From the NCBI RefSeq assembly GCF_050920415.1, contig NZ_CP169309.1: a stretch of 64,000 bases of DNA; one strand, written 5' to 3'. This document shows, piece by piece, positions 29,228 through 33,397 of the stretch. Source of the DNA: Escherichia coli (GTDB taxonomy: Bacteria > Pseudomonadota > Gammaproteobacteria > Enterobacterales > Enterobacteriaceae). The notes under the pieces were generated by a model. That model worked only from the letters and a program-made list of their open reading frames with translations. It was not told the DNA's origin and did not search any database. Position numbers and translations under genes: made by a program. Position 1 is the stretch's first letter. Each line of letters begins with the position of its first letter.

Positions 29228-29917
29228 ATGAAAACAACACTCTCAGAAAGACTTAAAGAAGCCAGATTAGCGCGAGGCCTTACACAAAAGGCGCTTGGGG
29301 ATTTGGTCGGGGTTAGCCAAGCTGCTATTCAGAAAATCGAAACAGGGAAAGCTAACCAAACAACTAAAATCGTGGAGATCGCGAACGCTTTGGGTGTGCG
29401 CGCAGAATGGTTATCTTCTGGCGTTGGAAATATGTCAGACAGTACAGTGCAACCAATACAATCAACTGTCAGCCATTCCAAATACTTCAAAATTGACGTT
29501 CTTGATATAGAAGTCAGTGCCGGGCCAGGTGTAATCAACCGTGAGTTTGTAGAAGTTCTACGCTCGGTTGAGTACTCGTTTGACGATGCTCGTCACATGT
29601 TCGATGGCAGGAAGGCGGAAAATATCCGCATCATTAACGTGCGAGGTGACAGCATGTCAGGGACGATCGAACCAGGTGACCTGCTGTTCGTTGATATCAC
29701 TGTTAAATCTTTCGACGGTGATGGCATCTATGCGTTTCTGTACGACGACACTGCCCATGTAAAACGTCTTCAAATGATGAAGGATAAGCTGCTGGTTATC
29801 TCTGATAACAAGAGCTACTCGCCGTGGGACCCGATCGAGAAAGACGAGATGAACCGGGTGTTCATATTCGGTAAGGTCATTGGAAGCATGCCGCAGACGT
29901 ACAGGAAGCATGGTTAA
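29228..29917 (+). CDS. cI: CI-type repressor (XRE-family HTH + S24 LexA-like autopeptidase domain)
   Basis: Track ORF 229 aa MKTTLSERLKEARLARGLTQKALGDLVGVSQAAIQKIETGK...GDSMSGTIEPGDLLFVD...KRL; HTH and Ser/Lys-dyad motifs. Confidence 0.85.
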   Translation: MKTTLSERLKEARLARGLTQKALGDLVGVSQAAIQKIETGKANQTTKIVEIANALGVRAEWLSSGVGNMSDSTVQPIQSTVSHSKYFKIDVLDIEVSAGPGVINREFVEVLRSVEYSFDDARHMFDGRKAENIRIINVRGDSMSGTIEPGDLLFVDITVKSFDGDGIYAFLYDDTAHVKRLQMMKDKLLVISDNKSYSPWDPIEKDEMNRVFIFGKVIGSMPQTYRKHG

Positions 29918-30146
29918 TTTATCTACGACTTAAGGGAGCGAAGGTTAAGGTTTATACCACTCGGATTAGATATTGCACTAAATTCTCTATAAGAACGCCA
30001 AATCTGTTTGCATATTTCAGTAAATATTCTCGTTGTTAGCTGAGATTTGTTGCTACTGTCAGCAAAATGTCCCCCTATCTCGTAGCGGTTTTTATTTCGA
30101 ATCATTATGTTAAGATGTTTCTGATTATAATGAATGGAAACATAAA

Positions 30147-30527
30147 ATGAGAAAAATCCTAATCGCTGCCATGATGGCATCTGTATTGGCTGGGTGTGCT
30201 TCTTCAGGCAACCAGCAACTCAAAAATGAAACTGAAATTAGTGTCCAGTCTAAACTTCAGGAAGGTAAAACAACCAAGAATGAGGTTAAATCTTACTTTG
30301 GTTCTCCTGATGCTGTTTCATATACTGACAGTGGAAACGAGATCTGGAAGTACGCCTTTGCAAAAGTAAAAGTTAATGGCACCACTTTTATTCCATTCTA
30401 TGGATTATTCCATAATGGAACGAACGGTACGAAAAAAGAACTTACTATTCTTTTTAACGATGACACGATTAAGAAATACACAATGTCAGAAACCCAAATA
30501 AACTCGAAATCAGGTTGGGCTGACTGA
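30147..30527 (+). CDS. lipoprotein of unknown function, located directly downstream of cI (rex position)
   Basis: Track ORF 126 aa MRKILIAAMMASVLAGCASSGNQQLKNETEISVQSKLQEGK...; lipobox LAGC; AT-rich; followed by a terminator. Confidence 0.7.
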   Translation: MRKILIAAMMASVLAGCASSGNQQLKNETEISVQSKLQEGKTTKNEVKSYFGSPDAVSYTDSGNEIWKYAFAKVKVNGTTFIPFYGLFHNGTNGTKKELTILFNDDTIKKYTMSETQINSKSGWAD

Positions 30528-30535
30528 TAATCATA

Positions 30536-30560
30536 CCCGGCAACCGCGCCGGGTTTTCTT
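30536..30560 (+). terminator. putative rho-independent terminator after the lipoprotein gene
   Basis: CCCGGCAACCGCGCCGGG followed by TTTTCTTTTCC. Confidence 0.55.
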
Positions 30561-30684
30561 TTCCTCCCCCTCATAACTCATACCGTCCAAAAAACCACCA
30601 CACCTCACTTCAGTTATCGCTATGCGATGCAAGTCACAAAATAAATCCATCCTAAATACAACCAGTTATATTTAAAACAACCGA

Positions 30685-30731
30685 CAAAACAACTTTTGTT
30701 GTTGACGATAAAACAACTATAGTTTTAAATA
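30685..30731 (+). promoter_or_regulatory. putative PL promoter with overlapping OL operators
   Basis: TTGACG (30702-30707), 17-bp spacer, TTAAAT (30725-30730); flanked by AACAACTTTTGTTGTT and AAAACAAC matching the OR half-site. Confidence 0.4.
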
Positions 30732-30803
30732 AATTCATCGCAACGACACAACGATACGGTAACCACCTGTTTCACCGTGGCGATGACCGCTTAGATCCGC
30801 AGT

Positions 30804-31214
30804 TTGAATTTCAGCAGGCTTCGGGGAGTGCGAGGGGTGAAACGGACGCGTGAACGTCGGTGTGACCAGCTGAAATCAACACAACACTTTATACCTCAGT
30901 CGCTTCAACGAGGCGGCTTAGTTATGACAACCGGCGGCCATCCACCGCCTGAATACGCGCAGAAGTCTCTATATGTTCAGCAGCCCAGCTTACGGGCAGG
31001 AGTTTTTATGGTTCATCAACATTACGGAACGCAGACCGTTAATCGCGGTGCGGTCATGCCAGGAATGCTGGTCAAACACAAAGATGGTACCTGGACTGCA
31101 TCAGCTAATTTACGCGGACGGCTTTATCTGCATCGCGGCATCGAGCGCACTTATACCCGTGATTTGCTCGTGGAAGTTTTTCTCGACGGACGCGGTAACG
31201 GCCTCAATCACTAA
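30804..31214 (+). CDS. hypothetical early-left protein; possibly an N-type antiterminator if a non-ATG start is used (ATG-initiated product would be 30924-31214)
   Basis: Track ORF 136 aa with TTG start; in-frame arginine-rich segment [12 protein letters not shown] resembles N-protein ARM motifs; first ATG ([14 protein letters not shown]...) has GAGG about 10 nt upstream; ends 75 nt before gam. Confidence 0.4.
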
Positions 31215-31289
31215 TCCCCTTTCCTGTTTTCCTAATCAGCCTGGCATTTCGCGGGCGATATTTTCACAGCCATTTTCAGGAGTTCAGCC

Positions 31290-31586
31290 ATGAACGCTTA
31301 TTACATTCAGGATCGTCTTGAGGCTCAGAGCTGGGCGCGTCACTACCAGCAGATCGCCCGTGAAGAGAAAGAGGCAGAACTGGCAGACGACATGGAAAAA
31401 GGCCTGCCCCAGCACCTGTTTGAATCGCTATGCATCGATCATTTGCAACGCCACGGGGCCAGCAAAAAAGCCATTACCCGTGCGTTTGATGACGATGTTG
31501 AGTTTCAGGAGCGCATGGCAGAACACATCCGGTACATGGTTGAAACCATTGCTCACCACCAGGTTGATATTGATTCAGAGGTATAA
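31290..31586 (+). CDS. gam: Gam (RecBCD inhibitor), short GamS form
   Basis: Track ORF 98 aa [52 protein letters not shown]... Confidence 0.9.
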
Positions 31587-31591
31587 AACGG

Positions 31592-32377
31592 ATGAGTACA
31601 GCACTCGCAACGCTGGCAGGGAAGCTGGCTGAACGTGTCGGCATGGATTCTGTCGACCCACAGGAACTGATCACCACTCTTCGCCAGACGGCATTTAAAG
31701 GTGATGCCAGCGATGCGCAGTTCATCGCATTGTTGATCGTCGCCAACCAGTACGGCCTTAATCCGTGGACGAAAGAAATTTACGCCTTCCCTGATAAGCA
31801 GAACGGCATCGTTCCGGTGGTGGGCGTTGATGGCTGGTCCCGCATCATCAATGAAAACCAGCAGTTTGATGGTATGGACTTTGAGCAGGACAATGAATCC
31901 TGCACATGCCGGATTTACCGCAAGGACCGCAATCATCCGATCTGCGTTACCGAGTGGATGGATGAATGCCGCCGCGAACCATTCAAAACCCGCGAAGGCA
32001 GAGAAATCACGGGGCCGTGGCAGTCGCATCCCAAACGGATGTTACGTCATAAAGCCATGATTCAGTGTGCCCGTCTGGCCTTCGGATTTGCTGGTATCTA
32101 TGACAAGGATGAAGCCGAGCGCATTGTCGAAAATACCGCATACACTGCAGAACGTCAGCCGGAACGCGACATCACTCCGGTTAACGATGAAACCATGCAG
32201 GAGATTAACACTCTGCTGATTGCCCTGGATAAAACATGGGATGACGACTTATTGCCGCTCTGTTCCCAGATATTTCGCCGCGACATTCGCGCATCGTCAG
32301 AACTGACACAGGCCGAAGCAGTGAAAGCTCTCGGATTCCTGAAACAGAAAGCCACTGAGCAGAAGGTGGCAGCATGA
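31592..32377 (+). CDS. bet: Bet (Red-beta single-strand annealing protein)
   Basis: Track ORF 261 aa [48 protein letters not shown]... Confidence 0.95.
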
Positions 32378-33054
32378 CACCGGACATTATCCTGCAGCGT
32401 ACCGGGATCGACGTGAGAGCTGTCGAACAGGGGGATGATGCATGGCACAAATTACGGCTCGGCGTCATCACCGCTTCAGAAGTTCACAACGTGATAGCAA
32501 AGCCCCGCTCAGGAAAGAAGTGGCCTGACATGAAAATGTCCTACTTCCACACCCTGCTTGCCGAGGTTTGCACCGGTGTGGCTCCGGAAGTTAACGCTAA
32601 AGCACTGGCCTGGGGAAAACAGTACGAGAACGACGCCAGAGCCCTGTTTGAGTTTACTTCCGGCGTGAATGTTACTGAATCCCCGATCATCTATCGCGAC
32701 GAAAGTATGCGCACCGCCTGCTCTCCCGATGGTTTATGCAGTGACGGCAACGGCCTTGAACTGAAATGCCCGTTTACCTCCCGGGATTTCATGAAATTCC
32801 GGCTCGGTGGTTTCGAGGCAATAAAATCGGCTTACATGGCCCAGGTGCAGTACAGCATGTGGGTGACGCGAAAAGATGCCTGGTACTTTGCCAACTATGA
32901 CCCACGAATGAAGCGTGAAGGCCTGCATTATGTCGTGATTGAGCAGGATGAAAAGTACATGGCGAGTTTTGACGAGATGGTGCCGGAGTTCATCGAAAAA
33001 ATGGACGAGGCACTGGCTGAAATTGGTTTTGTATTTGGGGAGCAATGGCGATGA
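32374..33054 (+). CDS. exo: Exo (Red-alpha 5'-3' exonuclease)
   Basis: Track ORF 226 aa [49 protein letters not shown]... Confidence 0.95.
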
Positions 33055-33233
33055 AGCATCCTCACGATAATATCCGGGTAGGCGCGATCACTTTCGTCTA
33101 CTCCGTTACAAAGCGAGGCTGGGTATTTCCCGGCCTTTCTGTTACCCGAAATCCCCTGAAAGCACAGCGGCTGGCTGAGGAGATAAATAATAAACGGGGA
33201 GCTGTATGCACAAAGCATCTCCTGTTGAGTTAA
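33045..33233 (+). CDS. small hypothetical protein (lambda orf60a-position)
   Basis: Track ORF 62 aa [50 protein letters not shown]...; start overlaps the exo stop. Confidence 0.55.
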
Positions 33234-33397
33234 GAACGAGCATTGAGATGGCACATAGCCTCGCTCAAATTGGAGTCAGGTTTGTGCCAATACCAGTAGA
33301 AACAGACGAAGAATTTCATACGTTAGCCGCATCCCTTTCACAAAAGCTGGAAATGATGGTGGCGAAAGCAGAAGCAGATGAGAGAGACCAGGTATGA
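33206..33397 (+). CDS. small hypothetical protein (lambda orf63-like)
   Basis: Track ORF 63 aa [50 protein letters not shown]... Confidence 0.55.
   Translation: MHKASPVELRTSIEMAHSLAQIGVRFVPIPVETDEEFHTLAASLSQKLEMMVAKAEADERDQV

Follow-up and report, generated by a model that had tools for sequence, protein, structure and literature searches.

Lambda gam is described as specifying a long form, GamL (138 aa), and a short form, GamS (98 aa), and the DNA immediately 5' of a lambdoid gam gene in an Escherichia coli genome raises the question of whether the long form has been lost there by mutation. An earlier note on the 64,000-nucleotide stretch of DNA analysed here (the window) had claimed that the sequence preceding the gam ATG at position 31290 carries the GamL extension in a frame shifted by a one-base insertion, and that this lesion marks drift of a dispensable segment in this genome. 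In the reading that we regard as highly probable, positions 31215-31289 are a non-coding leader between a division-inhibitor gene and gamS; the locus specifies GamS only, and it is a common natural variant in which nothing is broken.

On the + strand of the window, the lambdoid early-left region comprises a cI-type repressor gene (29228-29917), a gene for a small lipoprotein, a BamE-like moron (30147-30527, + strand), with a terminator-like site 3' of it (30535-30554), operator-like repeats (30682-30700 and 30706-30724), a gene for a 68-aa phage cell-division inhibitor (31009-31214, + strand; a strong AGGAG 7 nt 5' of its ATG at 31009), the 75-nt intercistronic leader (31215-31289, + strand), gamS (31290-31586, + strand) and, directly after it, bet (31592-32377, + strand) followed by exo (32374-33054, + strand). 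The gam, bet, exo order confirmed the Red-module context, and Escherichia phage PhiR26_1 is annotated in the same order. Over 801 nt around the gam leader the window is 100% identical to this independently sequenced phage, in which Kil, Gam and Bet are annotated. The leader would belong to the gam-bet-exo (Red) module, which is widespread among lambdoid prophages.

The gamS gene itself is intact. Its product matches the Pfam Gam family (PF06064) with residues 1-98 on profile positions 1-98 of 98 (E 3.4e-65, 216.8 bits, cut-off 25), and it aligns over residues 1-98 with the solved chains 5MBV_A and 2UUZ_A (cryo-EM/crystal) with about 3 differences in 98 residues (E ~1e-61 to 2.5e-61). The near-identity to lambda GamS suggests that RecBCD inhibition is retained, in line with what the earlier note had expected. 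In the open reading frame list, 31290 is the first ATG, GTG or TTG after an in-frame stop. In the gamS frame this stop is the TAA at 31233-31235 (+ strand), which closes any N-terminal extension 18 codons 5' of the ATG, and a second TAA lies at 31212-31214. As judged from the reading frames, the 98-aa GamS is the sole Gam form encodable at this locus, again as previously claimed. Its translation would start only at ATG 31290, by means of the AGGAG at 31278-31282 (+ strand), 7 nt 5' of it. The 5' segment is evidently dispensable as coding sequence.

Alignment of window positions 31080-31420 with the lambda genome (NC_001416) showed that homology starts at TCACTAA (31208-31214), which is the last two codons of the upstream gene including its stop; none was found further 5'. 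From 31208 through gam the alignment is near-perfect, and gap-free except at one site. The leader corresponds to lambda 33186-33113, the 74 nt 5' of lambda's second gam ATG, from which it differs by three substitutions (31215 C->T, 31242 C->T and 31271 T->C) and one extra base. The extra base is in a T run, where lambda GCTATTTC corresponds to GCCATTTTC at 31269-31277 of the window (in longer context, CACAGCTATTTCAGG in lambda and CACAGCCATTTTCAGG in the window); the dimorphic site proper (31270-31276, + strand) reads CCATTTT in the window and CTATTT in lambda. The window allele with the extra T will be called T4, the lambda allele T3. The claim that the DNA 5' of gam is a homologue of the GamL extension, in a shifted frame with stops, was borne out by this alignment, and the region is homologous, not unrelated, to the lambda gam 5' region. 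In the window the GamL-like frame resembles lambda GamL up to the indel; from there it no longer matches the gamS register and runs into a stop at 31319-31321. In other respects the locus is very similar to lambda gam (GamS of 98 aa; PDB 2UUZ, 2UV1, 5MBV). It shares the gene order division inhibitor, gam, bet, exo, a leader identical at 72 of 75 positions, the same hairpin (see below) and the same AGGAG-N7-ATG arrangement. It differs by the extra base and a linked substitution 5' of the Shine-Dalgarno sequence, by an upstream gene unrelated to lambda kil, and by the absence of a 138-aa GamL frame.

In lambda, kil (33187-33330) overlaps gam (32816-33232), and the GamL ATG, which is preceded by GCTTATAAAAA without a Shine-Dalgarno sequence, lies with the first 15 GamL codons inside kil. 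This part is without counterpart in the window. A start codon for GamL was found 5' of 31290 neither in frame with gamS nor in the GamL-like frame of the window: the latter has a stop 4 codons before the start of homology and then no ATG, GTG or TTG, and the in-frame ATG expected about 40 codons 5' of the GamS ATG is absent. Nor does the window contain a continuous open reading frame from the extension into GamS, which is interrupted by the two TAA codons and by the +1 register shift at 31270-31276. Because the GamL-like frame has a stop and lacks a start, restoring lambda's T run would not bring GamL back. The T4 allele and the different upstream gene together therefore leave no GamL frame in the window. 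The leader resembles the GamL extension because lambda's copy happens to be open in the gamS frame and joins a kil-internal ATG.

The upstream gene product had no match to Pfam Lambda_Kil (PF06301), and BLASTP gave no alignment with lambda Kil at E <= 100. It matches, with E 1.8e-38, a different family (phrog_294, 'Kil protein for bacterial septation inhibition') that has only the name 'Kil' in common with the lambda protein. In a 125-aa form of the protein, this match begins at residue 49; the 67-aa form had no PHROG match, although the 125-aa form matches over the same residues, a discrepancy that is probably a filter effect. RefSeq gives the equivalent gene a length of 68 aa and the label 'phage encoded cell division inhibitor protein', whereas in PhiR26_1 the gene is annotated as a 125-aa 'Kil' starting at GTG 30837. 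The 5' part of this long open reading frame (30837-31214) is arginine-rich and its coding status is doubtful.

According to the explanation closest to the earlier note, this lineage once had a functional GamL frame, which a one-base insertion inactivated and which has since been in decay, with GamS retained. This is consistent with the clear homology of the DNA to the lambda extension, from which it differs by +1; the different upstream gene and the missing GamL ATG and first 15 codons argue against it. The frequencies of the two alleles among relatives bear on the same question. For an allele-blind IMG/VR sample, gamS coding sequence served as the sole anchor of the scan, and 80 loci were listed. 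Forty-two of these combine T4 with the window-type upstream gene and have no GamL frame; 24 combine T3 with lambda-type kil and have GamL open, with a 40-codon extension; 12 have T4 with lambda-type kil and GamL frame-shifted; one has T3 with the window-type upstream gene and no GamL start codon; and the remaining one has an unrelated leader, another upstream gene and no GamL frame. GamL is thus encodable in 30% of the loci (24/80 listed), and T4:T3 is 54:25. In the 12 of 36 lambda-type-kil loci (80 listed) that carry the +1, 'frame-shifted GamL' is literally true. The window carries this same allele, which is the majority form, and inactivation of a formerly functional GamL is quite unlikely as an account of it.

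Complete E. coli genomes (5,426) were scanned with 42-43-nt queries, chosen such that no 28-nt seed was common to both alleles. T4 was present in 2,589 of these genomes, at 2,899 places, and T3 in 900, at 972 places, a ratio of roughly 3:1. Both this collection and IMG/VR are redundant, with many clonal E. coli lineages, and the counts describe prevalence and not independent evolutionary events. In allele-specific IMG/VR scans each allele was present in at least 120 contigs, and a separate IMG/VR set, found via the GamS protein (80 loci listed), contained both alleles in several backgrounds. By these counts, T4 is the commoner and lambda's T3 the minority form of two old, widespread alleles. 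Taking into account that the upstream gene differs and that a GamL start is lacking, the claim that a lesion marks drift in this genome had to be given up.

The alleles differ by more than the indel. In every locus seen, the extra T was linked to the T->C substitution two bases 5' of it, and a third form of the dimorphic site, GCCATATTTC, was found in one locus (L072). Of the one-base insertion proposed earlier, the extra base relative to lambda stands, and what has to be replaced is the simple event, by a linked substitution and indel at a site that also has a third form. The complete linkage points to two old haplotypes spread by recombination and not to recurrent slippage. It also bears on two other explanations. 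The first is a homopolymer sequencing or assembly error, with three T's in the true sequence as in lambda. The difference does sit in a run of T's, where indel errors typically occur; against this, the extra T is always accompanied by the same substitution. That the extra base is not a read error follows from the 100% identity of the allele in PhiR26_1 and its presence in thousands of assemblies (at least 120 IMG/VR contigs and the 2,589 finished E. coli genomes), and the probability of this explanation is close to nil. The second is that T3/T4 is a slippage-prone switch for phase variation of an optional GamL in phages with lambda-type kil. In its favour, each allele is seen next to either type of upstream gene, and the site is a homopolymer. 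On the other side, slippage would need a much longer run than 3-4 T's to be efficient, linkage of the indel to the neighbouring substitution is complete, and a switch would be irrelevant to the window, which is without a GamL start; we regard phase variation as very improbable.

The window has a standard gam locus, of the kind present in Stx-converting phages and in many further prophages of E. coli. Those lambdoid prophages, Stx-converting and other, that were compared (933W, VT1-Sakai, PhiR26_1 and RefSeq E. coli copies) share the T4 leader allele and the 98-aa annotation. The Stx phages are 99% identical to the window from about 31208 on and have another sequence 5' of about 31205, otherwise without a substantial difference; with these phages and others, homology starts at about 31205-31208. 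The RefSeq E. coli prophage copies are labelled 'host-nuclease inhibitor Gam family protein' and are 98 aa long. At a lambda-type locus with an open 138-aa frame, RefSeq still gives 98 aa.

Against a GamL frame in decay, the leader has no excess of other changes: with 72 of 75 positions identical to lambda, the leader has, among close relatives, a nucleotide diversity similar to that of gamS third codon positions. Linkage to gamS in a recently spread module would therefore suffice to account for its conservation. The relatives contain 62 leader haplotypes, and by eye their substitutions are both synonymous and non-synonymous in the GamL frame, the number being too small to discriminate. The pyrimidine run that follows the stop of the upstream gene (TCCCC in the window, 31215-31219, + strand) varies in length among relatives, with 5 pyrimidines in 204 loci, 6 in 19, 4 in 10 and 7 in 1, and is a second frame-shifting length polymorphism of the leader.

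More distant homologues were searched in protein clusters with lambda GamL as query. Among the matches listed, all clusters covering the extension (residues 1-40) were at least 96% identical to lambda, and the Gam homologues at 71-92% identity, which come from E. coli, Salmonella, Citrobacter and Raoultella, were 97-100 aa long and aligned only to residues 41-138. That no homologue below about 96% identity has the extension (among the matches listed) also argues against a GamL frame lost in this lineage. Next to a Salmonella gam whose product is 72% identical to lambda GamL, TTCAGGAGTTCAGCCATGAACGC is kept 5' of the gene and the remaining leader is different; in the diverged Salmonella loci the TTCAGGAGTTCAGCC-ATG block alone is retained, which is the ribosome-binding site of the short form. 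Three diverged E. coli gam loci (L340-L342, 81% identical) are without the leader, and a RecE-like gene overlaps the gam start by 23 nt. This gene (Exonuc_VIII) is 684 aa long and gam is still followed by bet and exo, so the module carries both RecE-type and lambda Exo-type exonuclease genes. The run-length variation, the missing extension in diverged homologues and the retention of only the block from the Shine-Dalgarno sequence to the ATG show that the leader does not behave like coding sequence. In agreement with this, the Pfam Gam model has 98 positions, which is the length of GamS, and the solved structures are those of GamS.

In the reading preferred here, a non-coding leader in a GamS-only locus, the 138-aa frame would be a property of those loci, a minority, in which lambda-type kil occurs together with T3, and the window-type arrangement of the module bears no sign of any past GamL. 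In the literature (PMC11610958; PMC5218532) the two isoforms, GamL and GamS, are 'presumably translated from two start sites', and both continue to be described in reviews (PMC11610958). Recombinant GamL is active, and one assay showed it to be a little more effective than GamS (Wilkinson et al. 2016, PMC5218532). The activity of the recombinant protein indicates that the extension is not harmful, and it may have a role in lambda itself. In the literature searched, no in-vivo evidence for GamL was found. The comparative data would make GamL at best optional, and possibly a frame accident of lambda's lineage. An old maintained dimorphism of leader haplotypes, in which the phages with lambda-type kil and T3 make GamL for a distinct role and the majority lineage, with this prophage, manages without it, seems improbable; the slight difference in potency between GamL and GamS in Klebsiella (PMC5218532) hints at such a role. 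Conversely, infecting phages may never produce GamL, and its frame may be an accident peculiar to lambda; the textbook 'two isoforms' would then need correcting.

For this genome the consequences are small: the gam-bet-exo module is normal and intact, and the public 98-aa gam annotation is correct. More generally, GamL is encodable at about a quarter to a third of close loci and, among the matches listed, in no diverged homologue. Because of this rarity the long form is unfit as a yardstick for calling a gam gene truncated or frameshifted, and direct evidence is needed before GamL is credited with a biological role.

The leader contains a terminator-like hairpin, detected both by a consensus scan and by folding (31235-31264 including the following AUUUU, + strand). 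The arms AUC.AGCCUG / CGGGCGAU enclose an 8-nt loop and span 31235-31259. The consensus scan placed the stem at 31239-31256 with the tail GATATTTTCA; 3 terminator-like sites were found in 1.2 kb, with 1.5 expected. The hairpin folds with -9.5 kcal/mol (z -2.05) and the lambda copy with -11.7 (z -2.5), whereas the fold of the whole 86-nt leader is no better than that of shuffled sequences (z -0.67). With 5+3 bp the stem is short, and the U run is not continuous. The C->U change in the window converts a C-G pair of lambda to U-G, and other haplotype polymorphisms break pairs. We tentatively suggest that the hairpin might act as a weak terminator that antiterminated early transcription would pass. 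It is probably the counterpart of one of lambda's tL2 terminators (tL2c): arithmetic on the alignment sets the hairpin and U run at about 33135-33162 of lambda, close to the reported map position of tL2c (~33141). A full-text literature search for tL2c at this position returned nothing relevant. Luk and Szybalski reportedly described in 1983 the weak terminators that make up the tL2 cluster of lambda, which lies between ral and bet.

An N-like antiterminator open reading frame was not found in 29917-30840, from the cI-type repressor to the first early-left gene; this N-less arrangement is common to PhiR26_1 and about 15 related phages. As the N gene is absent, a structured RNA 3' of the presumed pL (30730-30885) was considered and dropped (fold z -0.2, no Rfam match). 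An Rfam scan of 29900-31700 at E <= 1 gave two chance-level matches only, none of them in the gamS leader.

Proteins of 171 aa with Pfam Lambda_Kil and Gam domains, which cover 88-100% of GamL (P0002, P0005 and P0008), come mostly from Logan read-set assemblies, and their length is what a one-base shift in lambda-type kil would give if it brought the kil start into frame with GamL. With the window-type upstream gene, the T4 allele sets the division-inhibitor gene and gamS in the same frame, and in one contig (L004, IMGVR_UViG_2713896771_000008, ~1107-1797) both stops between the two genes are lost (TAA->TAC and CCTAATC->CCGAATC), so that a continuous 220-aa inhibitor::GamS open reading frame results.
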